A stretch of DNA of 33,174 bases from Burkholderiaceae bacterium (lineage in GTDB: Bacteria; Pseudomonadota; Gammaproteobacteria; Burkholderiales; Burkholderiaceae_C). Under the pieces are notes generated by a model. The model had not been told where the DNA came from. It was given only the letters and a program-made list of their open reading frames with translations, and ran no database searches. The DNA lies in contig JBOFGW010000290.1 in the NCBI GenBank assembly GCA_051649325.1, forward strand, positions 1 through 33,174. Direction: 5' to 3'. Numbering within the stretch: position 1 is the first letter of the stretch; each line of letters begins with the position of its first letter. Both the position numbers and the translations under genes were made by a program. This document shows positions 385 to 28,365 of the stretch, one piece after another.

Positions 385-3300
385 TTACGGCGCACTCGCC
401 TCCTCACTCCCAATCTGCCGCAAGTATGTCACCAGCCGCGACAAATCAGTGTTGTTGATCGTCACACCGCTATGCGCGCGCACGGCTGCTTCGAGCGTAG
501 CGGCGGAGCCGTCATGCAGATAAGGCCCGGTGGCCCACACATCGCGCAGCGTGGGCACATCCAGCCCGGTCAACGCTGCACCCAGCCGGTTACCGCTGGT
601 GGCTTTGATCGTGCCGATGTTGGGCAGAGCGTTGGTTGCGCTGTTGGTAAACGTAGCGCCGCTATGGCACGAGGCGCAGTTGCGGTTGATGAAGACCGTG
701 CGGCCTAGCGATGCAGTACTGGTCAGCGCGCCGTTTGCTTGCCGCGTGGGGCTTTGATCAAAGGTGGTGAGCGACGCAACATAGGCCGCCAGCGCATCCA
801 GATCCGCGCTCACGCCGGCCTTGGGATCACCCAGTGTTTGGCTGCGGGTGCCGGTGGCCAAGTCTGCGTCGCTCATCAGGCCGGCGCCGCCGGCGAGCAC
901 GCGGATCTGGCCTTCAAAGTCCTGCGTTTCATCAAAGTTGCTGGTCCAGTGTTTGCGGCCATGGCCCACACCGCGGCCGCGCAGGCTGATGGTGTTGCGC
1001 AGGCCTTCGCCAAAACCGGTCAGGTCCCAGGTGCGGCCGTCGTGCCCGCCGTCGTTGTGGCAGGTGGCGCAGCTCATGTAACGGTCGCGCGACAAGCGGA
1101 CATCGCGTGCGTCATAGAACAGCTTCTTGCCTTGCAACACTTGCGGCGTGAGCTTCTCTGTAGTTACTGCGCCAAGCAACGCCACGCTGGGCGCGCTCAA
1201 CTGGCCTTGCGTCAGCAGCGGCTGCAGGTCGTACACACCCACGGTGCGGTCCATGAAGTTGTTGACGTACAGCTTCGTGTTGTCCGGCGAGACCAATAGC
1301 GATTGCGGTGCAAAACCGGTGTCGATGCGCATCAGCTCACGGCGGCGGTGGGCATCCAGCACGGCGATTTCGCGGCTGGTCTCCAGCGCCACAAACAGGA
1401 ACATGCCGCTGTTGTCGTATGCCGCGGCACTGGCAACGCTGGCGTTGTCGTGGTCGATGCGGCCGGCATAGTCTTCGGTGCCGGCGGGCAGCACAATGCG
1501 CGAACTGATGGCGCGCACTGTGTTCTGGAAGTTCAGCGCATTGCCATCACGCAGCGAGCCGCGCTGGATGTTGTCTTGTTTGGAGGGCACAAAGGCCTGC
1601 GTGCCGTCTGGCGAGATGGCTGGCGCATGCAGGTAGTTGGGGATGCCGCGGCCCTGGTTTTCAAAATCTGCCTTGTCGCTATTGCGCAGAACAATGGTGC
1701 GTACGACGGCATAAGGGTTGTTGCGGTTGACCTGCACCACCTCGCCGCCGCGCACTACACCGCCCGCGTTGGGATCCACCGCGGCGGTTGCCTCGCCCGG
1801 CATGAAGGGCGTGACAAAGCGCGAGACGTAAATCGCAAACTGATCCGACGCGATCGACAAATGGCGCGGATTGGCACCCACATTCACCGCGTTGTGGTAG
1901 CTGTACTCCACGGTGCGGTACTTGCGGATTTGCCCCAGCGCTTCCAAGATCACCATGGCAATGGTGCCGTCTGGCGTCATGGCAATGCCGTGCGGCTGCG
2001 AGGCGCGCGGCAACTCAATCGTGCGCACCACCTGGCCCAGATTCGGATCAATCACCGAGATGCTGGCGCTTTGCTTGTTGGTCACCCACAGCATGCCGGT
2101 AGATGCACGGGCAATCGAGCGTGGTGCTGCGCCTACCGGCACTTCAAACAGCTTGGTGTTGGTCACCGTATCAAACGCGCTCACAGTGTCGTTGTCTTGA
2201 TTCACAACCCACAGCCGCGGATTGCCAGCGGCAGGTGCATCCCATGCCAGCAATGACGACTGCGTGGGCTTGCGCGTGGTGAGTGCCAGGCCGATTCTTT
2301 GCATAAAGGTGCGTGACTGCACCTGCCCGCTCACATCGCGCGCGGTCACAGTCACAAAATACACGCCGGGGCCAGGGAAGTTGTAGGACACGGTCGGCGA
2401 CATTGACCAGGGCGTATCGGCCGTGCCATCGCCAAAGTTCCAGCTGTACTGCGTGCCGGCGCCGTTGGCCGATGCGGAGTAGGTCACTGCGTTGCCGGAT
2501 ATGGCCACTGCCGGCGTGCCCGGTTGCTGCAGCGTGAGCGGGGCAAAGCTGCCCAGCGTCCACAAGAACGACGTAGATGCCACCGACGTGCCGTCACTGG
2601 CCGCCACGGTGACAAAATAGCTGCCGAGTTTTTGCGGCGTGCCGGTCATCCAGCCCGTGGTCGGGTCAAGGGTGACGCCGGGGGGCAGACCGCTGGCGGT
2701 GTAGCGCAGCACGTCGCCATTGGGGTCGGTCGCTTGCGCGCGCACCGACACGGCATTGCCGGCCAGACCACTCTGATCGGCAATCGCGGTCATCACCGGC
2801 ACTTGTGCAGCATCGCGCGCAGGTGGCACGTTGACGCGCACGATCTTGGCGACTGACGGAACGCCACTCGCATCAAAGACAAACAGCATGTAAAAGCCCG
2901 GCGGCGTATCGGTCACGCGTGAGGGCATGTGCACCTGCACCGCCTGCGCGCCGTCCACCGGCGCGTCTACATGAAACGGCAGGTCAACAAAGCGCTGGTC
3001 GCTGTTCCAAGTATGTGATGCAGAGCCTGAGCGCACCAGTGTCACGCGCGATACCGGACCTGCGCCGGTCTGGATGCCAAAGGTGTTACCCGGCTCCACC
3101 ACCGTGGGCGCCGTATTGATCACGGGCCGCGGTGCACGGTTGCCAGCTGCATCAAACAGATACGCGGGGTAATAGATTTCTGCATTGGTGTTGTTTTGCG
3201 GACCTGGCGCGCCGCCGCCGGCCACCAGTACGGTGGCATCGGGCATCAACAGCGATACCGAGTGATACAGCCGCGCTTTGACGGCCAGCGGGCCGATGAT

Positions 3301-4356
3301 CCACTGCCCTGTCACCGGATCCCACACGTCGGCGCTGTAGCTCACGCCGTTCATCACGTTCCATTCCAAGCTGCCGCCGGTGGCCAGCACGCGGCCATCG
3401 GCCATAACAGAAGTGCTGCCCAGCACGCGCTGGGTGTTCGCGGCCTCGGTCGGCACGCGCACCGGTGCGCCGCTGTTCAAATTGATCACGGTTGCAGCGT
3501 TGGAGTTGGAAGCGAGTTGCAAGATCATGCCCGGCCGGTACATCGCGGAGCCATTGCTATTGCCAGTCTGCGCGCCGGGAATCGTGCCCGCCGCGGTGAT
3601 GGTACCGGTGCCCGTCGGGTCGATGTAGTACTGGCGGCTGCCTCCGTCAAAGCCAAAGATGCGGCCATCCGGTGCGATCCAGTTGCGCGGGTACATCCAG
3701 CTCATTGAATTCGTGTCCACTGAAGACAGCAGCCGGAATGTGCCATCCAGTTGCCGAACTTCAGGCCGGTCCTGCCCACCCGCGCCACCCTGCACATAAA
3801 TTTCGCCGTTCATCAGCGTGGTGGTGGATGAATACCAGCGCGGGCGATTCATGTTGATGCCGCGTGTGAGCGAATTGTCGCGGTAGTCGAACAAGTTGGC
3901 GTTGTTGTTGCCGGTGTTGGTGGTGCGCGTGCCGGTCCAGTTGTCGCCGCCGGCGATGAATGCCTCGCCGGTCAGGGGCAGCAGGGTTTGCGAGCTGCAG
4001 AAAATATCGGTCGCAGTGCCGTTGGGGTAACTCGTGTGCGCTTCAATGCCGGTGCCCAGCGCCGGATCCCACACAGCGTAGTCAAAGAACGCGGTCTGCT
4101 GGCCGCTCGGGCGCGTGCCAAAGCTCATCACCCTGCCATCGGGTAGCACCAGCGCGTGGATTGGAATCACCGGCCAGGGCACCACCGGCCCCCACTGTCC
4201 ACCGACCTGCGGCGTGGTGTCAAAGGTTTTGCTCTTGCCGCCCGTGGCGTTGCTGCGGTCCGGCGCGTCTTGCGGCGCCATCGCGTAGCCAACACTGAAT
4301 TCCGGCGGCATATCTGGCTGGGTGCTCACGCCGCTGACGTCGGGCCCGCTGTCCAC
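385..4356 (-). CDS. Large secreted multidomain protein. N-terminal galactose-oxidase/glyoxal-oxidase-like radical copper oxidase (kelch propeller + DUF1929-like). Then an Ig-like (He_PIG-type) domain, a PKD domain, a YVTN-type beta-propeller, and a C-terminal di-heme cytochrome c peroxidase (CCP/MauG family) domain.
   Basis: A 1,323-aa ORF whose listed start is GTG at 4356. Galactose-oxidase-like motifs are present: DIFCSS (Cys228 equivalent), RWYSSTTT (Tyr272 equivalent), LYHSVSLLMPDATVLVAGGG (Tyr495/His496 equivalent) and SASHTWNSDQRFVDL (His581 equivalent). The PKD signature YSWNFGDGT is present, as are repeated YVTN-like propeller blades. Two CxxCH heme motifs (CATCH, CASCH) are followed by PTLRDVWATGPYLHDGSAATLEAAV, which matches the CCP signature PxLRNVALTAPYFHDGS. 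The true start is probably ATG at 4479 (see the separate feature). Confidence 0.8.
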   Translation of the reverse strand: MDSGPDVSGVSTQPDMPPEFSVGYAMAPQDAPDRSNATGGKSKTFDTTPQVGGQWGPVVPWPVIPIHALVLPDGRVMSFGTRPSGQQTAFFDYAVWDPALGTGIEAHTSYPNGTATDIFCSSQTLLPLTGEAFIAGGDNWTGTRTTNTGNNNANLFDYRDNSLTRGINMNRPRWYSSTTTLMNGEIYVQGGAGGQDRPEVRQLDGTFRLLSSVDTNSMSWMYPRNWIAPDGRIFGFDGGSRQYYIDPTGTGTITAAGTIPGAQTGNSNGSAMYRPGMILQLASNSNAATVINLNSGAPVRVPTEAANTQRVLGSTSVMADGRVLATGGSLEWNVMNGVSYSADVWDPVTGQWIIGPLAVKARLYHSVSLLMPDATVLVAGGGAPGPQNNTNAEIYYPAYLFDAAGNRAPRPVINTAPTVVEPGNTFGIQTGAGPVSRVTLVRSGSASHTWNSDQRFVDLPFHVDAPVDGAQAVQVHMPSRVTDTPPGFYMLFVFDASGVPSVAKIVRVNVPPARDAAQVPVMTAIADQSGLAGNAVSVRAQATDPNGDVLRYTASGLPPGVTLDPTTGWMTGTPQKLGSYFVTVAASDGTSVASTSFLWTLGSFAPLTLQQPGTPAVAISGNAVTYSASANGAGTQYSWNFGDGTADTPWSMSPTVSYNFPGPGVYFVTVTARDVSGQVQSRTFMQRIGLALTTRKPTQSSLLAWDAPAAGNPRLWVVNQDNDTVSAFDTVTNTKLFEVPVGAAPRSIARASTGMLWVTNKQSASISVIDPNLGQVVRTIELPRASQPHGIAMTPDGTIAMVILEALGQIRKYRTVEYSYHNAVNVGANPRHLSIASDQFAIYVSRFVTPFMPGEATAAVDPNAGGVVRGGEVVQVNRNNPYAVVRTIVLRNSDKADFENQGRGIPNYLHAPAISPDGTQAFVPSKQDNIQRGSLRDGNALNFQNTVRAISSRIVLPAGTEDYAGRIDHDNASVASAAAYDNSGMFLFVALETSREIAVLDAHRRRELMRIDTGFAPQSLLVSPDNTKLYVNNFMDRTVGVYDLQPLLTQGQLSAPSVALLGAVTTEKLTPQVLQGKKLFYDARDVRLSRDRYMSCATCHNDGGHDGRTWDLTGFGEGLRNTISLRGRGVGHGRKHWTSNFDETQDFEGQIRVLAGGAGLMSDADLATGTRSQTLGDPKAGVSADLDALAAYVASLTTFDQSPTRQANGALTSTASLGRTVFINRNCASCHSGATFTNSATNALPNIGTIKATSGNRLGAALTGLDVPTLRDVWATGPYLHDGSAATLEAAVRAHSGVTINNTDLSRLVTYLRQIGSEEASAP

Positions 4357-8960: not shown

Positions 8961-9180
8961 CGTGGTCGTACAAACACGGAGGCATTGTGGCGTGCGGGAG
9001 CTGGAATCTACGCACAATCAATGCCTCCGAATTCACGAGATTGACAGCAGCGTCTGCAACGCTCGCTCAACACACACGTCAGTGCTGTGGCCTACTGTGA
9101 ACGATTGACCGCGTAATAGCTGCAACTTAAGCACAACCTCGTAATCCTGACAGTTCAACATCGACGCGGCTGTACCTCAA

Positions 9181-10491
9181 ATGAGTCCTCCATTCCTCGG
9201 AGGACTTATGTCTGTTATTCAAGAAATCGAAACCCACGCCCTCTCCACTCCTCACGCAAGCGCAGCGCCCGCAACAGTTGTCGTAGAACCGTTGCTACTT
9301 AATGCCCTGGAGCGACGGGTTGAAGAGAAGTTCATCTCGCGACGCAATGAACTCTGGACCGACAAATTTTTTGTGCAAGGCCTCACGCCCGGACCAAATG
9401 CTGTGCGGCTGGACGGAAATGACTATCTCGGTCTTAGTGGCCACGAGCACATTATTCGCTCGCAAGCCCACGCGTTACAGCGCAACGGCGTGTCAATGAT
9501 CCAGTCCAGCGTATTTCTGTCAGAGGAACATCCAGCACACGCATTCGAACAGCGCATCGCTAAATTTGTCGGAAAATCCAATGCGGTGCTGTGCCAGTCA
9601 GGCTATGCAGCAAACATCGGCTTGCTGCAGGCCATCGCAGACCAGAACACCCCCATCTATATGGATGCGTTGGCGCATGCGTCGCTTTGGCAAGGAGCCC
9701 TCATTGCAGGCGCGCCTACGCATATGTTCCGCCACAACGACGCCGAGCATCTGAGCAAACAGATCGAACGGCATGGACCCGGCATTGTGGTGGTGGATTC
9801 GGTCTACAGCACAACCGGCTCTGTCTGCCCCCTCGAAGCGATGGTGCAAGTGACGGAACAGCATGGCTGCATGATCGTGGTGGATGAATCGCATTCATTG
9901 GGTACGCATGGCCCGAGCGGACGCGGGCTTACGGTGGCGCTTGGTCTGCAAGACCGCGTGCATTTCATTACGGCAAGTTTGGCTAAAGCGTTCGCCGGCC
10001 GAGCAGGCTTTTTCACTGTTCCAAATCGCCTGCGTCACTATGTTTTGCCAGAGAGCTTTCCCAATGTTTTCAGCTCTTGTCTGCTGCCGCACGAGGTGAT
10101 TGGCCTAGCCGCAACACTGGATGTAATTGAAACCGCCGACATGGCGCGCACGCGCCTGTTTGCACATACCTGTAGGCTGCGCGATGGGCTTGCGCAAGCG
10201 GGCTACCCAATTGGGCAGGGTACCGAACAGATTATTTCACTTGAAGCCGGGCCTGAACTTCAAACAATGCAGTTGCGTAATTGCCTTGAAGAGCGAGGGG
10301 TATTTAGCGCCATGTTCTGCGCGCCGGCGACCAGCAAAAACCGTTCGATGATGCGCCTCACAGTCTCAGCCGCGTTGACCGATGCTGAAGTCGATCATGT
10401 GGTCAAGGTTGCGCAGGACATCGCGCCAATAGTGCAGCCGCAACAGTGGCCGATTGCCAAGCGCTTGAGTAATCACAAAAACCGCGATTGA
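9181..10491 (+). CDS. cqsA: CqsA/LqsA-like alpha-hydroxyketone autoinducer synthase (PLP-dependent alpha-oxoamine synthase family)
   Basis: The protein aligns with V. cholerae CqsA along its length: [14 protein letters not shown] vs [36 protein letters not shown] vs [39 protein letters not shown] vs [17 protein letters not shown], and [13 protein letters not shown] vs TASLAKTFAYRAG. An alternative start is ATG 9208, preceded by GGAGGA. Confidence 0.8.
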   Translation: [436 protein letters not shown]

Positions 10492-11423
10492 CCCGCAGGC
10501 ATTTGGCGAAACTGCGCGAAAGAAACGGCTTGCGGCAAGAGCACACTCTTTGCCGCAACCACCAGCGGATCCTGCAATAACGAGAACGCTGGGCGCGCGG
10601 CCACGCCGTCCTGCACGATGCCGGCCGGCAGCTCAGCAGCAAACAGGTGCGTACCCGCGCGCACCTGATCGGCAAGCGCTGCGGGATGGCCGGCTTCGGC
10701 CAACATTTCTGCGAGCTCGGCGAGTGACGCGGTAGTTTCCAGCTGCAGCCACTGCATCTGGCCGCTTGCTGTGATGCCCAGCACACCAAAAGGCTCGGGC
10801 AAAATGGCATGCTCCACCCAACCGGAAGACTTTGCCTGCGTATTGACTGCCGCCGCAAAGCCAGGATTGGCCAGCAACTGCTGCTGCGAAGACGAAAGCT
10901 TGAGCTGCAGCGCCTCGCCGGCCTGGCCCGCGCCTTCGCTGCGCAGCACGGACACCACGGTCGTCAAACGCTCAAGGCTATTGGGCGCATGCTTCGGAAT
11001 AAAGTGGTCAATCAAGCCGCGGTTAAACGCGTCCACCGCAAGTTGCTCGTCAGCCTGGCCGGTGAGCAGCACGCGCTTGCCGGGCCAATGTTTGAGCTGC
11101 TCAAGCACCGCAAGGCCATTCATCGCCGGCATTTGAAAATCCACTACCAACACGGTGGCCAGCTCAAACCTGGCGTGGCTGGCGTACAGATGGCTTGCCA
11201 ATCCCTCCAGCAGCGACCCCGGCGCCTCGCTCGTGGCGACCAGTTTGGCCATCGCCAATTTTTGGCTTTGCCAACGCGGGACTTGCGCAAGCAGATAGTC
11301 AATGCAGCGCTGCGGCTTTTGAAAATACTGGCAGACAAAATCATCCGGGACCGCGACCGAGAGTCCGTCCAAAAAATGGCGCTCATCATCCAAGAACGCG
11401 ACGGTGCCTGGATACTCAAGCAT
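10473..11423 (-). CDS. LqsR-like orphan response regulator. It has an atypical receiver domain and no recognisable DNA-binding output domain.
   Basis: Receiver features are VAFLDDERHFLDG, the phospho-acceptor-like Asp in TVLVVDFQMPAMNGLAVLEQLK, and the conserved K in DHFIPK, followed by about 170 aa of unique C-terminal sequence. It lies immediately downstream of the sensor kinase (6-nt gap, same strand). The ORF track start is 11462; the ATG at 11423 was chosen. Confidence 0.65.
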   Translation of the reverse strand: MLEYPGTVAFLDDERHFLDGLSVAVPDDFVCQYFQKPQRCIDYLLAQVPRWQSQKLAMAKLVATSEAPGSLLEGLASHLYASHARFELATVLVVDFQMPAMNGLAVLEQLKHWPGKRVLLTGQADEQLAVDAFNRGLIDHFIPKHAPNSLERLTTVVSVLRSEGAGQAGEALQLKLSSSQQQLLANPGFAAAVNTQAKSSGWVEHAILPEPFGVLGITASGQMQWLQLETTASLAELAEMLAEAGHPAALADQVRAGTHLFAAELPAGIVQDGVAARPAFSLLQDPLVVAAKSVLLPQAVSFAQFRQMPAGQSRFL

Positions 11424-12795
11424 GGAGATGTTCACGCACTTCGCTCCTTTCAGAACTGTCAATGGGCAGCGTCAGAGTGAATCGAGTGCCTGCGCCCTCT
11501 TGCGATTCCAGCGCAATGGTTCCGCCCGCGCGCTGGATCACCTGTTTGCAAAACATCAATCCAAGGCCGTGGCCGCTGGACTCATGGGTTGTAAAAAACG
11601 GCTCAAACACCCGCTCACGTACCGCCAGCGGCATGCCAATCCCGCGGTCGGCGAACACGAGTTTGCCGTGTTGGCCAGAGGTTGTGACCGTCACTGAAAC
11701 ATCGCCGAGCACCGGGTCGCGCTGTGTTGCCACTACGGCGCGCAGGGCGTTCTTGAGCAAATTTGTGATGACTTGCGCCGTCAACACTTTGGAGCCGCGA
11801 AACGTGTAGTCGGTAACCACCGACACTTCTACACACTGGGCGAGCGCTGCATCGGTAAACGGATATCCTGCAATCGCTTCCTGCACTACCTGGCCCATGC
11901 GCACGGACTCGCGCGCGCCTGTGGCGACAAGCAAGCTGGAATTACTGATCTGCGTATCGATCTGATGGTTCATCAGCCGCACCAGCTGCGTAATCTTCTC
12001 CACCTGCGGCTGCATGGCCGCCAAGCCGGAGACTGCAGCCGCGGCGTCCTTTGATTGCGCGAGACCAGAGAGTCTTTGATTCAAGGCTTGCCCGATCAAT
12101 GACAAAGTAGCCAGTGGCGTGCGCAGTTCATGTGCCATGATGGCCATGGTCGACAGCATGGAAAGCAGGCGCTGCCGGCGCGTGTTTGCAGCAGACAAGC
12201 CAAGCACGATACCGGACGCCCAAGAAAACAAATGCACTGGCCAGGTTGGTGCCAATGCCTGCAAAACTGCGGCCTCGGAGGCAAACTGCGACCATAGAAA
12301 CATGTTGATGAGCAGGCCCACTGCAACGCCGACGGTTGCAAGGCGCCAATCCGTCACGTAGTAGTAAAAGAAAATCATCGCCGTGACAGAGGCAAGCCAC
12401 ACCGCATCGCCGCCGTTGGCAAAATACATCCACCAAAAGAAAAACGGCAGGTTTACAAACGTGTTGAGTGAGAACACGCGCGCCGCCGTGCGGGAGAATG
12501 GCCGGTTGCACACCGCGGGCAAGAGCAGCGGCACGCCAAACAACATCATGAGCAGCCGCAGGCCCAGATTTTCATAGGGCTCTGGAATGACGAAGGTCCA
12601 AATGATGTAATACAGCGGATGGCCAACCAGGGTAATGGCGCCTACGATCTGTATTCGCAACTTGGATGGGCTGATGATCGGTTCGAGCGGCGCGTGTAGC
12701 ACTGCTTTTCTTGCACCTTGCGCGATCGCGCGTATTCGGGCGCCGAAGCTGAAATTGGATAGAGGCATCACCGTGGTTGCAGTGCGCGCGATCAT
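11416..12795 (-). CDS. cqsS: CqsS/LqsS-like membrane sensor histidine kinase (multi-TM N-terminal sensor, HisKA and HATPase_c domains, no receiver)
   Basis: The N-terminal multi-helix region contains PLYYIIWTFVIPEPYENLGLR ... LPFFFWWMYF, reminiscent of the CqsS sensor domain. The H-box is HELRTPLATL, the N-box is NLLKNALRA, and the G-boxes are DRGIGMP and GHGLGLMFCKQVIQRAGG. The ORF track extends to 13128, but that extension overlaps the LuxR gene on the other strand, so ATG 12795 (or 12768) is the likely start. Confidence 0.7.
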   Translation of the reverse strand: MIARTATTVMPLSNFSFGARIRAIAQGARKAVLHAPLEPIISPSKLRIQIVGAITLVGHPLYYIIWTFVIPEPYENLGLRLLMMLFGVPLLLPAVCNRPFSRTAARVFSLNTFVNLPFFFWWMYFANGGDAVWLASVTAMIFFYYYVTDWRLATVGVAVGLLINMFLWSQFASEAAVLQALAPTWPVHLFSWASGIVLGLSAANTRRQRLLSMLSTMAIMAHELRTPLATLSLIGQALNQRLSGLAQSKDAAAAVSGLAAMQPQVEKITQLVRLMNHQIDTQISNSSLLVATGARESVRMGQVVQEAIAGYPFTDAALAQCVEVSVVTDYTFRGSKVLTAQVITNLLKNALRAVVATQRDPVLGDVSVTVTTSGQHGKLVFADRGIGMPLAVRERVFEPFFTTHESSGHGLGLMFCKQVIQRAGGTIALESQEGAGTRFTLTLPIDSSERSEVREHLHA

Positions 12796-12848
12796 GTGAT
12801 TTGCGCAAAACGTGTTTGCATACAGAGGCCTCAGTATCACATATCTCC

Positions 12849-13529
12849 ATGCAATCAAGCGATGCAATAGCTGACAGGTGCGTATGGAGCGGTTTGCCGC
12901 CGCAGGTGACGCAAGCGCTTGCGCAAGCGGCGCACGCACGCGTTGCGGTCGTTCGGATTCCGTTGCAGGAAGCCGGCGGCAGCCACCATTGGCTTGCGTC
13001 GCACTGGCCGGAAGATGTGCGGGCAGTTGCTGCAGCAGCAATTGGCCAGCCACTGCTCTTTCCTGCGCTGTGGCCCGGCGGCGATGCGGCGCTGACGGCG
13101 CGTTTTTTGGTCGATACCGGGCACACAACCACGCGTAGCGGCCGCTTTCTGCGCGCGTGCCAGCATCTGCAACTGGCCTGCTGCGTGCGCGTGGCGATTC
13201 CGCTGCCGCTGGACGTGGCCTTGGAGTGCCTTTTGTATTTTGGCGATGCGAAATCGCAGTGGGCTACCGATGCGGCCTGCGGCGCGGCAGTGCTGGAGTG
13301 GCTGCCGCTTTTTCGCGGTGCGATGCGCACGCAGTCCAAGCTGCTCACGCCGCGCGAAGTGGAATGTCTGCGCATGGCCTTTGCGGGACTGACCGCAGGT
13401 GAAGTAGCAAGCCGCCTTGACTGTTCTGATCGAACCGTCAATTTTCACTACGCCAACCTGATGACCAAACTGGGCGTGAAAAACAAGCTTGCTGCTGCTT
13501 TGCTCGCGAGCTGGTTGGGGTTGATTTAA
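12849..13529 (+). CDS. LuxR-family (GerE-type HTH) transcriptional regulator
   Basis: The C-terminus, LTPREVECLRMAFAGLTAGEVASRLDCSDRTVNFHYANLMTKLGVKNKLAAALLA, is a canonical LuxR/GerE HTH. About 160 aa of N-terminal domain of unclear type precede it. The ORF track start is TTG 12777; the first ATG is at 12849. Confidence 0.75.
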   Translation: MQSSDAIADRCVWSGLPPQVTQALAQAAHARVAVVRIPLQEAGGSHHWLASHWPEDVRAVAAAAIGQPLLFPALWPGGDAALTARFLVDTGHTTTRSGRFLRACQHLQLACCVRVAIPLPLDVALECLLYFGDAKSQWATDAACGAAVLEWLPLFRGAMRTQSKLLTPREVECLRMAFAGLTAGEVASRLDCSDRTVNFHYANLMTKLGVKNKLAAALLASWLGLI

Positions 13530-13635: not shown

Positions 13636-14391
13636 CTAACCGCGCACATCCGCCACCGGCTCTGCGCCAAAGTCTGCGCGGTTCAGATAGGCAATGACTT
13701 TTTCGGCGGCCTGCGGCGGCGTCATCAACTGGCCTTCTGCCTTCATTTTCACGAAGCGCTCGCGATTGGGAAACTGCGCGGGGTCGCTGCCGCGCAGTTG
13801 CACTTGCATGTCGGTATCAATCACGCCGGGTGCGAGCGAAACGATTTTTGCGCCGTTCTTCTCCGCCGCCTGCTCCAGTGCCACCGCACGCGAATAGTGG
13901 TCCAGCCCGGCCTTGGCGGCGCAGTAGCTTGAGCTGCCGGCCAGCGCAAAGCGGCCCAGGCCGGATGAAATGTTGAGCACTTTGCGCGCGCCCGGCCAGC
14001 CTGCCGTTGCGCGCAAAAACACGGCGGTGAGCAGCATCGGCGCTTCAAGCCCGACGCGCAGCGCAGCACTGACATCTGCACCGTTTGCAGCGGCCAGCGG
14101 CCCCGGCGGCGCAAGCAGTGCAGCGTTGTTGATCAGGGTCACGCTGGCAAAGCGCTTGCCGTCTTGCGCGTGCAGCCAGTCCTCCAGCTGCTGCGCGGCA
14201 GTGTGTGGTTCGGTGAGATCAAGCGTCCACTGCTCACAGGTAGCGCCTTGCTCTTGGGCAAGCGCATCCAGCACGCTGCTGCGCTTGCGCGAAATGGCCA
14301 GCAACACGTGCTTCTCGCGCAGCAGTTGCTGCGCAATCGCTTCGCCCATGCCGCGCGATGCGCCGGTGATGATGGTGAGGTGTGCAGTCAT
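13636..14391 (-). CDS. Short-chain dehydrogenase/reductase (SDR) family oxidoreductase
   Basis: Cofactor motif TGASRGMGEAIA and active-site motif YCAAKAG (YxxxK). ATG at 14391; the ORF track start is 14454. Its 5' end overlaps the 3' end of the MFS gene. Confidence 0.85.
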   Translation of the reverse strand: MTAHLTIITGASRGMGEAIAQQLLREKHVLLAISRKRSSVLDALAQEQGATCEQWTLDLTEPHTAAQQLEDWLHAQDGKRFASVTLINNAALLAPPGPLAAANGADVSAALRVGLEAPMLLTAVFLRATAGWPGARKVLNISSGLGRFALAGSSSYCAAKAGLDHYSRAVALEQAAEKNGAKIVSLAPGVIDTDMQVQLRGSDPAQFPNRERFVKMKAEGQLMTPPQAAEKVIAYLNRADFGAEPVADVRG

Positions 14392-14431
14392 CGTGTCATC
14401 CAGTGTTTGATGTGTGCATGCTACCCGCGGA

Positions 14432-15637
14432 TCAAGATTTTTCGCGCAGCCCAAACGCCAAGGCCAGCAGCCCAGCCAGCGCCACCGCCGCCATCAGCAC
14501 CGGAAAGCCCAGCACGGGCGAAAGCTGCAGCGCAAAGCCGCCCACCACGGGCGCAACCATGCCGCCGGCGGTATACGCCATCACCAGCACGGCGGTGGCG
14601 TTCATGAGCTGCGTGTTTTGATGGCGATGGCCGATTTCAATCATCGACAGCGTATACAGCGCCCCGCCCGCGCCGCCCCACACAAACGCAATCAACCATG
14701 CAAGCCAGGTGGTTTCGCGCGCCAGCGGCAACAGCAGCGTGCCCGCGAGCGTGACCCATGCGCACGTCAAGAACACGGCGCGGCGCGGAAAGCGGTCGGC
14801 CGCCTCGCCAATCGGAATCATCATCAGCGATGAGCCCAGACCGCTCGCACTCACCAGGAGCGTGGCCGCGGCAACGCCAAAGCCTAAAGCCAAACCCCAG
14901 ACCGGCAGCAGGCCGGTAATGCCGGACTCAAAAAACCCGCCGACAAAACCCGCGATCATCACTACCGGCGCAGACTTCAGCGCCAGCCACACGCCGGAAA
15001 AACCCAAATGCCGCGCGTCGCCGCTTTTTTCATGGGGCAGATGCGGCACCAAAAACGACAGCGCAAAGCCCAGGATCACCAGCGCCAGCGCAATCAAAAA
15101 CGGTGCGCGGCCGGCCGTGCCCGTGAGCGCGAGCAGCGCCGGGCCGAGCACGAACGTAGCGCCGATCATGGTCTCGAACAGCCCCACAATCCGGCCACGC
15201 CGCGCTGCGGGTGCAAGCTCCGCCACCGTGGCTTCGGCCACAATCCAGCGCAGCGCGCTGGCCATGCCGCTGATCAGATACAGCGCGCTCCACAGCAGCA
15301 GCGAATTCGTCAGCACAATACCCGTCATGCACACCGCCGGAATCGCGGCAGACACAATCAGCGCGCCGCGTTTGCCCAGCCGCTCTACCCACGCGGCGGT
15401 AAACGGCGTGGCCGCACAAATGCCAAACCAGCCGGCGGCAGAGAACAAACCCACCAGCCCCGCTTCAACGCCGCGCTGCGTGAGGGTGACCACCAAGAGC
15501 GGCACCAGCATGAAGTAGCCAGTCAGCTCGATGAAGGTGGAGCCGAACACCGCCGCGAGGCCGCGACGGCGCAGCGCGGGCGGTAAAGCCGCGGCTTGCG
15601 TTGCACTGTCGGGGTTAGGCTGTCGGCTGGCGTCCAT
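14432..15637 (-). CDS. MFS-family transporter
   Basis: 401 aa with about 12 hydrophobic segments. MFS-like loop motifs are present. It forms an operon with the downstream SDR. Confidence 0.8.
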   Translation of the reverse strand: MDASRQPNPDSATQAAALPPALRRRGLAAVFGSTFIELTGYFMLVPLLVVTLTQRGVEAGLVGLFSAAGWFGICAATPFTAAWVERLGKRGALIVSAAIPAVCMTGIVLTNSLLLWSALYLISGMASALRWIVAEATVAELAPAARRGRIVGLFETMIGATFVLGPALLALTGTAGRAPFLIALALVILGFALSFLVPHLPHEKSGDARHLGFSGVWLALKSAPVVMIAGFVGGFFESGITGLLPVWGLALGFGVAAATLLVSASGLGSSLMMIPIGEAADRFPRRAVFLTCAWVTLAGTLLLPLARETTWLAWLIAFVWGGAGGALYTLSMIEIGHRHQNTQLMNATAVLVMAYTAGGMVAPVVGGFALQLSPVLGFPVLMAAVALAGLLALAFGLREKS

Positions 15638-17547: not shown

Positions 17548-17731
17548 AGGCATATTCAGCGGCGATATTCAGCACAGCTAAGCCACAAGTAGTCAGCTTG
17601 GCGGCGCGGCATTGCGCGCTGCCGCGCTTGGTCTGCGTTGACGAAATCTCAAAAGTTGCAGTTTTGTGCGGTCAGGGGGCGACATTCCAAGACAAGGTGC
17701 TAGACCTGCCACACGCAACCACAAATAATTC

Positions 17732-18602: not shown

Positions 18603-18632
18603 AAAAAAGCCCGGTACTTGCCGGGCTTTTTT
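18603..18632. terminator. Bidirectional rho-independent terminator (AAAAAA-GCCCGG-TACTTG-CCGGGC-TTTTTT)
   Basis: The 6-bp GC stem (18609-18614 and 18621-18626) is flanked by an A-run and a T-run. It lies between the convergent Roadblock gene (stop 18580) and the BLUF gene (stop 18631). Confidence 0.8.
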
Positions 18633-20166
18633 ATGTTGCATCCGCCTGCGCCAGCGCGTCTTTCCATTGCCCGGCCAGGTACTGCACCATGCCCATATTC
18701 AGGTCTGCATCGCGCAGCACCACCCGCACCCAGAGATCGCCGCCACTGCCCGGTACGCTCAGCAGCGCCAGCCATTCAAACGTGCCCCCGCCATGGCTGC
18801 AGGTGAACTCCAGCGGCGCACCGGGCGCCTGTTGGCTACGCATATGTGCCAGGGCCTGCAGCAGATCGGCCGGCGCCTGCTCGGGCGTGCTGGCCGCCAC
18901 CAGATGGTGATTGTCCTGCGACCAAGCGGCCCACGACTGCACCGCGCCCTGGCTTGAAAAAATGCGCTGCAGCGTTTGCGCAAGCGCGGGCGGTGATGCT
19001 GGCGCAGGCGTAGTTACGGCAACCGGCTTGACTGCAACCACCGGCTGCGCAGCGATCGCAGGGGCAGCGCCAACCTTGCCGGGCGCGGCGCGCGGCGAAA
19101 AAACCGTCTCGGCCGATGCCGCGGATACCGCCCATTCATGCTGCACAAAAAAGCGCTCGGCCGCGGCGCGGATCTCGTCCCACACCGCGCTGGGCTCGGC
19201 CAGATGCGAAAACACCACTTGCGCTGTAAAGCCCTGCTCCTGCGCATACGCGCGAAAACGCTCAGCGCTGAGTGTCGACTTAGGCGTAAAAACGCCGATG
19301 ACCACGGGCTGGATACTGCGCATGCTGGCGGTGGCCAGAATTTTTTGCGCAAAGGCCAGCGTTTCGGCCGGCGAGGCGCTGCGAAACAGCATCGCCAACA
19401 CCTGCGTCTGCTGGTTCAGCAGCTCAAACAAAGACGATTGCACCATCCAACCGCTGATACAACTAAGCCGCATGTGGGTGCCCTTGCGCAGGGGAATGTC
19501 CACGTACTCGCACAGGGCCGCCTCGTCGGGCACCGCCGGCGCGTTGAACCAGGTGCGGCTGATGCGCTTGATCTGCGCGGTATCTGCCACATGCCGCACC
19601 AAGGCAGAGGGCCAGATGGAGTTGGTCGCCACGACGCACACGCGCGTATACCTGAACGGCCCTGCCTCGCGCTGGTTGTTGGGCGCATCAGCCGGCTTAA
19701 CCAGGCCGCGCACCAGATCGGCGGCGCTCCAACCGCCGCTGCGCGAGCGCAGCACCACCGCGTCGGCGCGGGCGCGCACGTCTTCTGCGGTCTCGGTGCG
19801 CTTGGCCACACAGACCATCCAGTCATCAGCCAACACTGGCTCGTGGGCATCAAACAGCAGCACGTGGTAGTCACTGTGGCGCGGATCGCGCTGCAAGCGT
19901 TCGTTGAGCGTTTGCAGCGCCGGCAGCGGGCCTTCCAGCCATTGCATGAAAAACCCGCCCATGTAGATCAACGCGCCGCGGATGTGATGCGCCGTGTTGT
20001 GCTTGCACGCCTGTGCCTCGATCTGCACCAGCTCGCGCATGATGTCGCCCTGCACCTGCGAGCGGCTGATGTACACCAGTGTGTGCGAGGCGTTGCCGGC
20101 AGTTTGATCGCGTGAGTCGGGCACGGTTGTGATGAGGTACGTATAAGGCAAATTGGCCGCGTGCAA
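18631..20166 (-). CDS. BLUF (blue-light FAD sensor) domain protein with a long C-terminal extension. The extension has a middle domain of unknown type, an Ala/Pro-rich linker and a C-terminal Roadblock-like segment.
   Basis: The BLUF motifs are the conserved Tyr in HTLVYISRSQ and IRGALIYMGGFFMQWLEGP...RDPRH. The exact start is uncertain: TTG at 20166, or a GTG just before YISRS. The first in-frame ATG would remove the conserved Tyr. Confidence 0.65.
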   Translation of the reverse strand: MHAANLPYTYLITTVPDSRDQTAGNASHTLVYISRSQVQGDIMRELVQIEAQACKHNTAHHIRGALIYMGGFFMQWLEGPLPALQTLNERLQRDPRHSDYHVLLFDAHEPVLADDWMVCVAKRTETAEDVRARADAVVLRSRSGGWSAADLVRGLVKPADAPNNQREAGPFRYTRVCVVATNSIWPSALVRHVADTAQIKRISRTWFNAPAVPDEAALCEYVDIPLRKGTHMRLSCISGWMVQSSLFELLNQQTQVLAMLFRSASPAETLAFAQKILATASMRSIQPVVIGVFTPKSTLSAERFRAYAQEQGFTAQVVFSHLAEPSAVWDEIRAAAERFFVQHEWAVSAASAETVFSPRAAPGKVGAAPAIAAQPVVAVKPVAVTTPAPASPPALAQTLQRIFSSQGAVQSWAAWSQDNHHLVAASTPEQAPADLLQALAHMRSQQAPGAPLEFTCSHGGGTFEWLALLSVPGSGGDLWVRVVLRDADLNMGMVQYLAGQWKDALAQADAT

Positions 20167-25137: not shown

Positions 25138-26172
25138 CTAGTGTGTAGTTTCGGTCTTCACATGCCAAGCGGCATCACGCTGCTCAATCACAAATCGCAC
25201 CGGCAAGAACTGCGCAATTGTCTGCGCATTGGTGCGTGTGTGCTGCGTGATTTCATTGGCTACGAATTCGCCCGCGTTATTGTCTCTAGCGGCCAGCGCT
25301 TGCAGCAGCATGAGTTGATCAGCCAAATGCGGCCCCACCGGCGCGTGCGATTTTTGATAATCACGCAGCTCGCTCACCAACCGTTTGGCCACTTCGTCTG
25401 AACTCACCGCTTTCTCGCCAAACTGCGTGAACACTTCTGTCACGTGTTCATACGCGAGCGTGGCGATCAGCGCGTTGCCCGGCCCTTCGTTCTGGCGCGT
25501 GCCGCCGTGACGCAGTTGGTCACCGCTCCAGCCCATCGCCGCGCCCAGCACCTCTAGCTCGCGCGCGGGCACGCTGCGCGGCAGGCCGGGCGCGAGCGCT
25601 TCTGCGTACGCGTCAACAGGCGCGCCGCGCTGCGTGAGTGTGATGGGTTTGAGCTGCGCGGCCGGATAAATCACCGCTGTCATCTCACCCCCGCCCGCCG
25701 GATAAAACCCGTGGCGGCGCAAGCTGAGCTGCAGATCCGCACCCGCGCGGCGCACCAGCGGTGCAAACGCCTGCTGCAGAAAATGAAACGGCGGCGCCAT
25801 TGGGTTATGCGTGCCGCCCGCTAAATGAATCGTGCTGGCTGCATCGGCCAGCAGCAGCGGCGGCAACACCGTTTGCAGCACCAGCGTGCAAGACCCCGCG
25901 CTACCCACCGCAAAACTGTACTCGCCCGCCTTCACTTTGCCCGACGCAAACACCAGTTGCTGCGAATTCAATTCCGCACCTTCCACCTGCGCACCACACA
26001 CCGCCTGCGCCGCCTGCACGCAGGTGAGATGCTGCCGCATCAGCCCCGGCTTGGGCCGCTTCGCGCGAATGCTGTGCATGCGAAACGGCTTGCCCGTCAC
26101 CATCGACAAGGCCAGCGAAGTCCGCAAAATTTGTCCACCGCCTTCTCCGGCGGAACCGTCGATTTCAATCAC
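25138..26172 (-). CDS. rtcA: RNA 3'-terminal phosphate cyclase
   Basis: The protein is collinear with E. coli RtcA: IEIDGSAGEGGGQILRTSLALSMVTGKPF, RPKPGLMRQHLT, FAVGSAGSCTLVLQTVLPPL and RHGFYPAGGG. The GTG start overlaps the upstream gene's stop by 8 nt. Confidence 0.93.
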   Translation of the reverse strand: MIEIDGSAGEGGGQILRTSLALSMVTGKPFRMHSIRAKRPKPGLMRQHLTCVQAAQAVCGAQVEGAELNSQQLVFASGKVKAGEYSFAVGSAGSCTLVLQTVLPPLLLADAASTIHLAGGTHNPMAPPFHFLQQAFAPLVRRAGADLQLSLRRHGFYPAGGGEMTAVIYPAAQLKPITLTQRGAPVDAYAEALAPGLPRSVPARELEVLGAAMGWSGDQLRHGGTRQNEGPGNALIATLAYEHVTEVFTQFGEKAVSSDEVAKRLVSELRDYQKSHAPVGPHLADQLMLLQALAARDNNAGEFVANEITQHTRTNAQTIAQFLPVRFVIEQRDAAWHVKTETTH

Positions 26173-27274
26173 TTTTTTCTTCTCTTCGCCGAGTTACTTT
26201 TTTCTTTCCTCGTTCGAGCTTCTTTTGGTACTCCATCCATCCGCTGTGAAAACCTTGGTCAGCACGACTAGCCCAAGTTTCAAAAAGACTACCCAGGACT
26301 AAAGAGTCGACACTCGGAACAAGATGTAGGACTGCTTTGCCCGTCCGTACTAGAGATGACACCGTTAGGACTCCCGGCTCAGTAAGCCCTGCATTGCTAG
26401 GTCCAGCAAGAAGAATCTTGCCTTGGCTTTGATCATCCAAACCAAGCCTAAACATCACACCTTTTGCACTGGCATGAACGTTTTGGCTAGCAAATTTGTA
26501 GTACGGTCTCAAATATTCGTAGCCAGTGAACTCTTCCAGATCAAAGAAAGTAATCCTCCCGCTCTTAGCAAGCAGCTTTGCGGCCCAACCATAGTCTTTG
26601 GCAAAGCTTTCACCATTTGCAGCAATGGCTTTGTTTCGCTCTTTCGTGATCCGAGCCATTGCTTGACTAGATAGCTTTCTTTCACCAAGTGCGGCAGCGT
26701 GCGTTTGATATTGCAAAGCAGCGTGATAGTTCTCGACTGCGACATGAGAACGATAGAGCTGCGAAACGCCAGCTTCGCTATGAGCAAGTACATCGGCCAC
26801 TGTTGCAACTTCGTGCAATGAGCGCCAGCGTGCTATTGCGCCATCTGCGAATCCGTTAAGTAGCAAGTGATATATCTCACTTGAAATCTGAATAGAGCGC
26901 GCATGAAGCTGAGCTACAACGTCGATTCGAATTCTTTCCGCCTCAGAACGACTTCTTCTCAACGCCAGTTTTATTGACGCTTCAAGTTCAATCGACATAT
27001 TGATTAGCTCAAGCAAGCGGTCAAGGCCTGCATTCCAGTTCCGAGCATTGCTTCGTAGGAATTGGCCGTGATCTCTCTTCCACTCGCGAAGCGAATCTCG
27101 CGAGCGCTGGCGCAAACCCTTGGCAAGAACTTTGGCTAAATCACTCGCTATAGCGGGCAGGTCCTGAGCGAGGCGCTCTAGTTTTTCTTTACCTTCGCCA
27201 TGGGACGGAGAAAGCCCCATCTCCGTCAGCTTATCCGCTATCAGCGATTCAAAGATTTTTTGTATTCCTAGCAT
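26165..27274 (-). CDS. Hypothetical protein (369 aa, lower GC) inserted between rtcB and rtcA. Predicted all-alpha. Contains an RWRSLH (Rx4H) motif.
   Basis: A long ORF with coding-like codon usage, noticeably AT-richer than its neighbours. The ATG is at 27274. It is translationally coupled to rtcA. No family was recognised by eye. Confidence 0.6.
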   Translation of the reverse strand: MLGIQKIFESLIADKLTEMGLSPSHGEGKEKLERLAQDLPAIASDLAKVLAKGLRQRSRDSLREWKRDHGQFLRSNARNWNAGLDRLLELINMSIELEASIKLALRRSRSEAERIRIDVVAQLHARSIQISSEIYHLLLNGFADGAIARWRSLHEVATVADVLAHSEAGVSQLYRSHVAVENYHAALQYQTHAAALGERKLSSQAMARITKERNKAIAANGESFAKDYGWAAKLLAKSGRITFFDLEEFTGYEYLRPYYKFASQNVHASAKGVMFRLGLDDQSQGKILLAGPSNAGLTEPGVLTVSSLVRTGKAVLHLVPSVDSLVLGSLFETWASRADQGFHSGWMEYQKKLERGKKKVTRRREEKSD

Positions 27275-27474: not shown

Positions 27475-28365
27475 TTAGTCCTTTTCGCAGTACCAGCGAG
27501 CATTTTTCGCAATCATGCTGTGGGGGCTGTTACATAGGGCTGCGAGCAGGCTTCTCCTCTGCGGAAAATCCATTCGATTTGCCAGCACTACAAAGGCGCG
27601 CCAAGCTATGTTTTTGTCTGTACTGTGCAGGGCTTGCGATATCGGTTCTTTGAGTTCTGATGCCGGCAGTCTTAACACTGGGCGCAACCAGTTTGAGAGA
27701 TGTTTGCTGTCATTGAGATATGCAGGAATCAGCCAAAACGCGTCCGCGCGGCCAACAGAATGTGCGATTGCCCTACTCGCGGCTTCGCCCAGGTGGTACT
27801 CCCAGCTTCTGTAGGCTGCGTTCTCAGCTTCTTTAATCCAATTCCGCAAGCGTTGTATGTTCGCGCTACCTCCCCAACTTCCCAGTACGCCTACTGCCGT
27901 CGTACGAATACCCCACCATTTGCTGCTCAACGCGTTTTCAACTTCCAACTGAGCGCTTTCATCGGGCGCATGGTTGCTCAAGGCGCGTAGACGTGCCGTC
28001 CATTCCCGCAGCAAATCCGCATTGTTCAGCGCGAACTCACGCCGCGTTTTCCGACACCGTAAGCAGCGCACGGCCTGGCTGTCGATGTTTCCTTTGGCAA
28101 TCTCATACCACCACTTTTGCTGTGCCGCGGTCCAAACGCCGTTTGTGCCGCAATCCTTGCACGTAAACGCGCGGTCTTCGTAGAACTTTGGCAGCAGGTT
28201 GTAAGTGCTGTTGTGCGCGAGCTGAGCCGGATCGGCGCTTATTCGGCTCGTGGAACCTGAAGAAGCAGCGAACCGCACATCATTTATTTTTGATTGAAAC
28301 CATGTAGCCGCCCGCTCCTGCCGGCGCTGCATGATTTCTTTTCGGCGTTTTTTGTTGCTTTTCAT
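27475..28365 (-). CDS. Hypothetical protein (296 aa, lower GC) with a basic N-terminus and a CxxC...CxxC zinc-ribbon. Inserted between rtcB and rtcA.
   Basis: The N-terminus is MKSNKKRRKEIMQRRQER. The Zn-ribbon is CKDCGTNGVW...CLRCRK. The gene starts 15 nt after the rtcB stop. No family was recognised. Confidence 0.6.
   Translation of the reverse strand: MKSNKKRRKEIMQRRQERAATWFQSKINDVRFAASSGSTSRISADPAQLAHNSTYNLLPKFYEDRAFTCKDCGTNGVWTAAQQKWWYEIAKGNIDSQAVRCLRCRKTRREFALNNADLLREWTARLRALSNHAPDESAQLEVENALSSKWWGIRTTAVGVLGSWGGSANIQRLRNWIKEAENAAYRSWEYHLGEAASRAIAHSVGRADAFWLIPAYLNDSKHLSNWLRPVLRLPASELKEPISQALHSTDKNIAWRAFVVLANRMDFPQRRSLLAALCNSPHSMIAKNARWYCEKD

Follow-up and report, generated by a model that had tools for sequence, protein, structure and literature searches.

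A predicted alpha-hydroxyketone quorum-sensing module with a linked, divergently transcribed LuxR-family gene in an uncultured Burkholderiaceae bacterium

We analyzed a 33,174-nucleotide stretch of DNA from a Burkholderiaceae bacterium (contig JBOFGW010000290.1 of assembly GCA_051649325.1, positions 1–33,174; referred to as the window) and are highly confident that the gene cluster at positions 9181–13529 contains a genuine triad for quorum sensing by alpha-hydroxyketones (AHKs), of the type known as Lqs in Legionella and Jqs in Janthinobacterium. The cluster comprises genes for a pyridoxal phosphate (PLP)-dependent synthase of the CqsA/LqsA/JqsA type (9181–10491, + strand), an LqsR-type orphan response regulator (10473–11462, − strand; receiver protein), an LqsS-type membrane sensor histidine kinase (11416–12795, − strand) and a LuxR-family transcription factor (12849–13529, + strand; hereafter LuxR). 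As an explanation of the whole, we consider it probable that these four genes form one AHK module in which LuxR is the putative DNA-binding step. All four open reading frames (ORFs) were found at the positions given in an earlier reading of this DNA made from the letters alone (the sequence-only reading).

The kinase and receiver genes overlap by 8–47 nt and therefore form one operon. The synthase gene converges with this operon, with a 3′ overlap of 19 nt (10473–10491). The gene layout given in the sequence-only reading is correct. The same 19-nt overlap is present in three related loci (L001, L002 and L089); the Ramlibacter loci have a 6-nt gap instead. Transcription of these two genes towards each other could create a negative coupling of their expression. 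The LuxR gene is divergent from the kinase gene, with 53–80 bp between the two start codons.

The synthase passes the NCBIfam equivalog model for AHK-type autoinducer synthases (NF005526) with 549.6 bits at a cut-off of 428, and the match spans profile positions 18–405 of 407. The models for 8-amino-7-oxononanoate synthase (BioF, 245 against a cut-off of 426) and for glycine C-acetyltransferase (KBL) and serine palmitoyltransferase (SPT; 207 against 460 and 225 against 500 for these two) are not passed, and in the same NCBIfam scan the 5-aminolevulinate synthase model stayed likewise far below its cut-off. The best PDB match is CqsA from Vibrio cholerae (3hqt/2wk8; E = 2.5e-98, 332.8 bits). 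It is followed by serine palmitoyltransferase with 161 bits, and SPT, KBL and BioF all score at or below this value. Both the NF005526 match and a CqsA score twice that of any BioF, KBL or SPT entry support the earlier assignment as a CqsA-like enzyme; a grouping with BioF or KBL, looked at as the contrary outcome, was not observed. The PLP-lysine motif TASLAK (K269) aligns with TASLAK of CqsA, the lysine of which is K236, and the DESHS motif is conserved as well. Sequence identity is 38–46% to the Legionella synthases adjoining LqsR and 58–62% to those of Polaromonas and Ramlibacter. The protein belongs to the Pfam family Aminotran_1_2 and the alpha-oxoamine synthase superfamily. As judged from its sequence, the synthase is a CqsA/LqsA orthologue and is predicted to produce an AHK.

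The synthase ORF encodes 436 residues from the ATG at 9181, but the protein probably has 427 residues and starts at the ATG at 9208. This start is the likelier one: it is preceded by a GGAGGA Shine-Dalgarno sequence, and the protein of the closest relative is called at 427 residues. In the predicted RNA fold the Shine-Dalgarno sequence pairs with an upstream CCUCC in a hairpin at 9181–9209 (+ strand) with a folding energy of −18.3 kcal/mol (z = −2.45; an equally good fold was seen in 3 of 200 shuffled sequences). The CCTCC...GGAGG pairing is kept in L001 and L002, and the leader (9100–9210) is 89% identical to the leader of the relatives, compared to 82% identity for their synthase protein. 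These features hint at a predicted translational control of autoinducer synthesis. Look-ups of protein records gave no exact match for the synthase from 9181, nor for the receiver protein from the starts 11462 and 11423; genomic context was taken from homologues.

The kinase contains HATPase_c (E = 9e-24) and HisKA (E = 1e-4) domains, and no Response_reg domain was found with Pfam. Six hydrophobic segments (residues 50–71, 76–98, 106–126, 131–148, 152–173 and 184–204) are directly followed by the H-box AHELRTPL with H222. A six-helix topology has been described for the sensor domain of CqsS and LqsS (PMC3376566). The number of segments is the one expected from the sequence-only reading, whose proposal of a multi-spanning CqsS/LqsS-like kinase is borne out here. 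Aligned over residues ~26–445, the protein is 28–31% identical to the Legionella kinases adjoining LqsR (E from 1e-32 to 1e-47); its sensor domain alone is 23% identical to L. pneumophila LqsS over 178 aligned residues. A lack of similarity to the CqsS/LqsS sensor domains was considered as well, and instead homology to LqsS and the ligand-determining residues were found. An alignment of 12 sensor domains shows the conserved motif G-x-P-x(4)-W ... (Y/F)E ... LR. Residues W133, S136 and F190 occupy the positions of W104, S107 and F162 in CqsS and of S111, S114 and F168 in LqsS; the CqsS positions were mapped via the LqsS numbering and the published CqsS-LqsS alignment (PMC3376566). In Vibrio CqsS these positions determine head-group recognition (PMC3376566). 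Serine and phenylalanine at the S136 and F190 positions are invariant in all 12 aligned kinases, and the L. pneumophila reference kinase reproduces the published LqsS residues S111, S114, I166, F168, A172, T175 and L176 exactly. The kinase is of the LqsS type and not of the CqsS type, because it has no receiver domain of its own; from its sequence we assign it as an LqsS-type receptor. No NCBIfam model matched the sensor domain.

The kinase is annotated with 459 residues; a start at 12768 is also possible. The raw ORF reaches 13128, and the database protein P0001 (459 residues, 100% identical) begins at 12795. The start at 13128 was set aside, because the extension overlaps the LuxR gene and is unused in the database annotation. 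A protein with 85% identity (P0002) is named "CAI-1 autoinducer sensor kinase/phosphatase CqsS" by the Joint Genome Institute (JGI). The relatives of the sensor domain include long proteins of 585–740 residues; an assignment of these as Vibrio CqsS was not retained. In one Legionella locus (L005:3804-5112, L. pneumophila subsp. fraseri) lqsS is split into two ORFs by a stretch of masked bases (N, translated as X), so that the split reflects the stored genome and does not mark a pseudogene.

The receiver protein has 320–329 residues, with candidate starts at TTG 11462, GTG 11435 and ATG 11423; the protein of a relative is called at 320 residues, equivalent to the start at 11435. The only Pfam domain is a partial Response_reg (residues 102–159). 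The best PDB match, entry 6sy9 (chain A; E = 1e-17), covers residues 12–268 and thereby reaches beyond the receiver core by over 100 residues. A clade profile built from this protein and its Polaromonas and Ramlibacter relatives, leaving out Legionella, matched 6sy9 with E = 1.6e-29 over 262 of 325 positions. The second-best PDB match of the profile, at E = 3.5e-6, is confined to the receiver core (~57 residues). In L. pneumophila, the gene located between those for LqsS and an lqsA-type synthase codes for a protein with 98% identity to 6sy9. Since this locus contains the lqsA-type synthase and the kinase with the published LqsS residues, 6sy9 is LqsR. A text search for a paper describing 6sy9 gave no result, and its identity was taken from the L. 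pneumophila locus; the assignment fits the structure paper of Hochstrasser et al. (2020), cited in PMC9544456. The segment LVVDFQMP aligns with VVVDYAMP of LqsR, and FLDDE aligns with FVDDS of the acidic pocket. The acceptor aspartate within VVD is D108 in the numbering of the ORF, and D108 is also the published phospho-acceptor of LqsR (PMC3376566). Within residues 154–329, neither Pfam nor NCBIfam detected a DNA-binding or enzymatic output domain. By sequence, the protein is thus an LqsR homologue with an extended receiver and a C-terminal domain without assigned function. The description as an LqsR-like receiver lacking a DNA-binding output proved correct, given the 6sy9 match beyond the receiver core and the Pfam and NCBIfam scans.

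A scan of one genome per species with the 6sy9 sequence gave 80 loci with L. pneumophila on top (98%). Among the loci recovered in this analysis, the order LuxR (divergent), kinase-receiver, synthase (convergent) is present in 28 out of 28 related Comamonadaceae-type loci, those with a kinase of the window clade, namely the window lineage (L001–L003 together with L089), five loci of the Ramlibacter type and about 20 of the Polaromonas type. Across these loci the identity drops to ~33% for LuxR and to ~40% for the kinase. Culturable relatives include Polaromonas isolates and Ramlibacter tataouinensis TTB310, in which the locus lies at 875405–888751 of CP000245. The block is flanked by SDR (short-chain dehydrogenase/reductase) and MFS (major facilitator superfamily) genes on one side and MAPEG, YCII and LysR genes on the other in the window lineage, by pantothenate kinase (PanK) and SecA in Ramlibacter, and by an M20 peptidase and an oligopeptide (Opp) ABC transporter in Polaromonas. 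When look-ups were begun from LuxR proteins, the kinase was found next to the gene in four out of four cases. No GerE-type gene was detected by a hidden Markov model of the LuxR helix-turn-helix (HTH) within ~6 kb of any of 59 loci from Legionella, Nitrococcus, Gallionella, Sulfurimicrobium, Uliginosibacterium, Coxiella-like bacteria and Massilia. Since LuxR is found in all 28 loci of the clade and is absent from the 59 others, it is a clade-specific and tightly linked fourth gene. In the searchable open-access literature we found no description of a LuxR gene beside cqsA or lqsA homologues.

Two MAGs (metagenome-assembled genomes) labelled as the alpha-proteobacteria Brevundimonas sp. and Asaia bogorensis (L069 and L081) carry four-gene modules that are almost identical to those of Polaromonas. 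This is most likely due to mis-binning; a recent transfer is less likely. The SDR gene directly beside LuxR in the window (13636–14454, − strand) has as its best NCBIfam matches PRK07023 (261 bits against 292) and "(S)-benzoin forming benzil reductase" (224 against a cut-off of 258). The benzil reductase yields an alpha-hydroxyketone by reduction of a 1,2-diketone. In CAI-1 (cholera autoinducer 1) synthesis, the final step is an NADPH-dependent reduction of the 3,4-dione (PMC3376566). The same SDR gene adjoins the block in L002 and L089 (LuxR 60% identical), but not in the Ramlibacter or Polaromonas loci, and its adjacency may for that reason be lineage synteny only.

The raw ORF of LuxR begins at 12777, and the database protein P0121 comprises 226 residues and is 100% identical. 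The C-terminal GerE domain (PF00196) is matched with E = 3e-18, which confirms the earlier assignment of a GerE-type LuxR gene divergent from the kinase. At E ≤ 1e-10 the family counts at least 818 database proteins. The best PDB sequence matches are RhlR, QscR, CviR and LasR, and the family profile matched only the HTH of the PDB sequences. No NCBIfam model matched the N-terminal domain. We calculated an AlphaFold2 model from a 49-sequence alignment (pLDDT, predicted local distance difference test, 74; pTM, predicted template modelling score, 0.66). In this model an N-terminal sensory α/β/α domain with a five-stranded sheet is connected by a long linker helix to the HTH. A Foldseek search with the model yielded 33 best PDB matches, all of them full-length receptors of the N-acyl homoserine lactone (AHL) type (LasR, QscR, TraR, RhlR, SdiA and CviR). 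The sensory domain shares 4–11% identity with these receptors. An hhalign comparison of the LuxR family with Autoind_bind+GerE proteins gave a probability of 99.6% over 122 columns; the aligned span consists of the HTH and ~55 preceding residues, and the AHL-contacting region lies outside of it. The residues contacting AHL in TraR, W57, Y61, D70, P71, W85 and G113, include the canonical W57...D70 pattern. The family-conserved W75 and D79 are four residues apart and do not fit this pattern. Judging by the model, the protein is probably built like a LuxR-type receptor whose sensory domain has diverged.

A response regulator of the NarL/FixJ type was ruled out: Pfam found Response_reg in none of the 13 family members, and the predicted fold is not CheY-like. 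Because a receiver domain is missing, LuxR does not qualify as an ordinary substrate for phosphorylation by the kinase. Many members of the family are labelled "SolR", an AHL regulator, by JGI, and some of these are mislabelled.

Based on these results and on the better known systems, the following pathway can be proposed. By analogy, the synthase would condense an acyl-CoA with S-adenosylmethionine or aminobutyrate to an amino- or enamino-ketone, which would be converted to a 3-hydroxy-4-ketone. As in Legionella and Vibrio, the autoinducer would bind to the membrane domain of the kinase and toggle H222 between its kinase and phosphatase modes. The phosphoryl group would then be passed from H222 to the aspartate of the LqsR-type receiver, and the receiver protein would dimerise, again following the Legionella and Vibrio models. 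In this clade LuxR would supply the DNA-binding step, as suggested by the conserved synteny. Control over its LuxR-receptor-like or GAF-like N-terminal domain would most likely be exerted by the LqsR-type protein through contact, or else by a small ligand, perhaps the AHK or one of its precursors. LuxR would probably act on the short control region shared with the kinase and on other targets. The divergent intergenic region (12796–12848; 53 bp, or 80 bp with the kinase start at 12768) is presumed to be a control region common to the kinase operon and LuxR, and it is similarly short in the related loci (about 50–170 bp). A functional link between LuxR and the triad is moderately favoured by the strict co-conservation within the clade, so the earlier suggestion of LuxR as a partner regulator gains support as far as the association is concerned; its coupling to the pathway is drawn from synteny. 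Any one specific coupling mechanism is at best a tentative proposal. This applies also to the idea that the Comamonadaceae-type Lqs pathway acquired a dedicated LuxR-receptor-like factor that responds to AHK binding or to direct contact with the LqsR-type protein in its phosphorylated state; we regard this as possible but less likely than not.

Several observations weigh against an AHK module with LuxR as its output. The source DNA is a MAG, and the cluster is known here from its genes. The link between the kinase and CqsS runs via LqsS and the published alignment rather than through a direct sequence comparison. The case for LuxR is one of gene order, and within one bacterial family conserved gene order can partly reflect shared descent. 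Moreover, other Lqs-type systems work without an adjoining LuxR, so that the pathway as such can do without this protein. The AHL-binding domain Autoind_bind (PF03472) was detected in none of 13 family members at E ≤ 1. For the N-terminal domain of the model, GAF domains are as good a match as the ligand-binding domains of LuxR proteins; pLDDT is 54–70 over most of residues 11–80, at a moderate overall value of 74. The kinase/LuxR intergenic regions yielded no operator motif shared by all groups. A search for Lux boxes there returned only weak palindromes in the window group (TGTATGCAAACA; TGTTTGCAAACA in L001), and the Polaromonas and Ramlibacter regions share a different element, (T/G)GACAAT. 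The TTGA-N6/7-TCAA motif of Janthinobacterium was not found near the cluster; its single match in the window, at 17638, is no more than expected by chance and is not close to the module. In addition, no sigma-70 consensus was found in 12796–12848, and a scan for promoters and terminators gave no more hits than in shuffled sequence.

The main rival accepts the triad as real and regards LuxR as an independent "LuxR solo" that is inherited as a neighbour, responds to another ligand (an AHL released by neighbours, a compound from plants or algae, or a xenobiotic) and controls unrelated genes. LuxR solos are common, the "SolR" labels and the resemblance of the predicted fold to AHL receptors would suit such a role, no gene of this kind adjoins the Lqs-type systems of Legionella, Nitrococcus, Gallionella and Massilia, and a shared operator was not found. 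A different LuxR solo from the Comamonadaceae has been reported to be sulfonamide-responsive (bioRxiv 10.1101/2023.03.31.535187); this Comamonas testosteroni protein may or may not be a member of the present family. An independent gene, however, would be expected to part from the cluster in some rearrangements, and adjacency and divergent orientation are retained in all 28 loci, at LuxR identities down to ~33% and in three flanking contexts. The four look-ups that started from LuxR and led to the kinase, together with the failure to detect the AHL-binding domain model in any of the 13 members, also argue against it. We consider an independent solo possible, though not the favoured explanation.

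Alternatively, LuxR could be a second, cytoplasmic receptor for the AHK or its amino/enamino precursor that acts in parallel to the kinase, with a separate, non-transcriptional output of the LqsR-type protein. Analogues exist in LuxR-type proteins that bind AHLs and in VqmA, which binds DPO (3,5-dimethylpyrazin-2-ol). The predicted α/β/α fold of the N-terminal domain is of a ligand-binding type, matching LuxR ligand-binding and GAF domains, and the protein has no receiver domain and is strictly linked to a synthase. AHKs are hydrophobic and membrane-permeant, as we assume from the Vibrio and Legionella literature. Against this, no pocket residues can be assigned, the segment of the model expected to make up the pocket has the lowest confidence (pLDDT 54–70 over most of residues 11–80), and the LuxR gene adjoins the kinase operon and not the synthase. 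We know of no precedent for a LuxR-type AHK receptor, and on balance a second receptor seems rather unlikely.

A reading without any quorum sensing, in which a common 8-amino-7-oxononanoate synthase or glycine C-acetyltransferase is encoded beside an unspecialised two-component sensor kinase, might be argued from the shared alpha-oxoamine synthase superfamily and from a sensor domain recognised by no NCBIfam model, but this is highly improbable and is refuted by the model scores (AHK synthase passed; BioF, KBL and SPT far below their cut-offs), by a CqsA score twice that of any other solved enzyme, by the alignment of the kinase sensor with LqsS including the diagnostic residues, and by the LqsR-type partner, which is specific to AHK systems.

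We thus return to the four-gene AHK module as the preferred reading. Its triad is ordinary in itself and adds one more uncultured beta-proteobacterium with an Lqs/Jqs-type system. The sequence-only reading had regarded such triads as a scattering among environmental proteobacteria, and this rarity did not hold up: more than 1,300 kinase homologues were scored, many of them named "CqsS" by JGI, the kinase sensor domain forms 381 clusters at 50% identity among 1.84 billion representatives, and clusters had already been reported in Polaromonas, Burkholderia, Cupriavidus (R. eutropha) and Nitrococcus (PMC3376566). The new part is the linked, divergent LuxR gene, which goes beyond what the searchable literature describes. 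Even in Legionella the route from LqsR-type regulators to gene expression is unsettled, and the transcription factor LvbR is linked there only indirectly. A LuxR gene that is never parted from the kinase-receiver operon in Polaromonas, Ramlibacter and the window lineage may be a candidate for the missing link to gene expression. If this is true, AHK quorum sensing would have in LuxR its first defined DNA-binding output or its first cytoplasmic receptor, and the system would be a hybrid of two-component and LuxR-type quorum-sensing logics. It would also provide a ligand or partner for a large family of unannotated "LuxR solos" (at least 818 proteins).

Some further genes were observed in the window away from the module. 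The RNA-repair genes rtcB (28381–29613) and rtcA (25138–26172), both on the − strand, are parted by two extra genes, which encode a DUF5677 protein (26165–27274) and an unassigned ORF of 296 residues (27475–28365). The GC content is 0.50–0.55 over ~26–32 kb, compared to about 0.62 elsewhere on the stretch, and the rtcB-rtcA interval looks like an insertion into the RNA-repair operon. The gene at 385–4356 (− strand) codes for a protein of 1323 residues which combines glyoxal/galactose-oxidase-like, Ig/PKD, beta-propeller, di-haem cytochrome c peroxidase (MauG-like) and cytochrome c domains and is an unusual fusion. An ORF of 511 residues at 18631–20166 (− strand) carries a BLUF blue-light sensor domain at the N-terminus, and ~400 of its residues are without a Pfam match.

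The window cluster is built from the same three protein families as the Lqs system of Legionella pneumophila (lqsA-lqsR-hdeD-lqsS), which uses LAI-1 (Legionella autoinducer 1). Both have a non-hybrid kinase with six helices and an LqsR-type regulator with an acceptor aspartate and a C-terminal domain without known function. In both, kinase and receiver are encoded on the same strand, and the synthase gene converges with them (PMC3376566). In contrast to Legionella, the kinase and receiver genes overlap and are not separated by hdeD, and the head-group position of the kinase is occupied by a tryptophan (as with W104 in V. cholerae CqsS) and not by a serine (Ser111 in LqsS). A LuxR gene is attached in the window cluster, whereas none was found within ~6 kb in 48 Legionella-type loci; the linked transcription factor of Legionella, LvbR, is encoded elsewhere (PMC9544456). 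The identity to the Legionella proteins is 23–31% for the kinase, 25–29% for the receiver protein and about 40% for the synthase.

The Jqs system of Janthinobacterium and Duganella (jqsA, jqsS and jqsR), with JAI-1 (Janthinobacterium autoinducer 1) as its signal, is a beta-proteobacterial Lqs-type triad like the one described here. Experiments have shown that it controls violacein; deletion of jqsA alters violacein production in Janthinobacterium and is complemented by cqsA and lqsA (PMC3566124, PMC5080296). The gene order is different: jqsA is divergent from jqsS-jqsR, while the synthase gene of the window is convergent and located downstream of the receiver gene. Unlike the window cluster, the Massilia loci of the Jqs type that we recovered (L060–L062) have no LuxR neighbour, and the motif of Jqs-regulated promoters is missing at the window cluster.

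With the CqsA/CqsS system of Vibrio cholerae (CAI-1) the module shares a CqsA homologue as synthase, a six-helix sensor and the W/S/F positions. Vibrio CqsS, however, is a hybrid kinase with its own receiver and feeds into LuxU-LuxO-Qrr-HapR, whereas the window kinase is non-hybrid and has an LqsR-type partner. The idea that the triad defines both the Lqs and the Cqs systems is therefore correct for Legionella, and also for Janthinobacterium Jqs, but not for Vibrio, because Vibrio has no LqsR (PMC3376566, PMC3566124). Finally, LuxR resembles the AHL-type receptors TraR, LasR, QscR, SdiA, RhlR and CviR in its predicted two-domain architecture, in its length (about 225–240 residues in this group) and in a GerE HTH that ends in ...LGLI. 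No search aimed at a luxI gene was made in the window; as far as its known neighbours go, LuxR differs from these receptors in being linked to an AHK system whose receptor lies in the membrane, rather than to a LuxI synthase.

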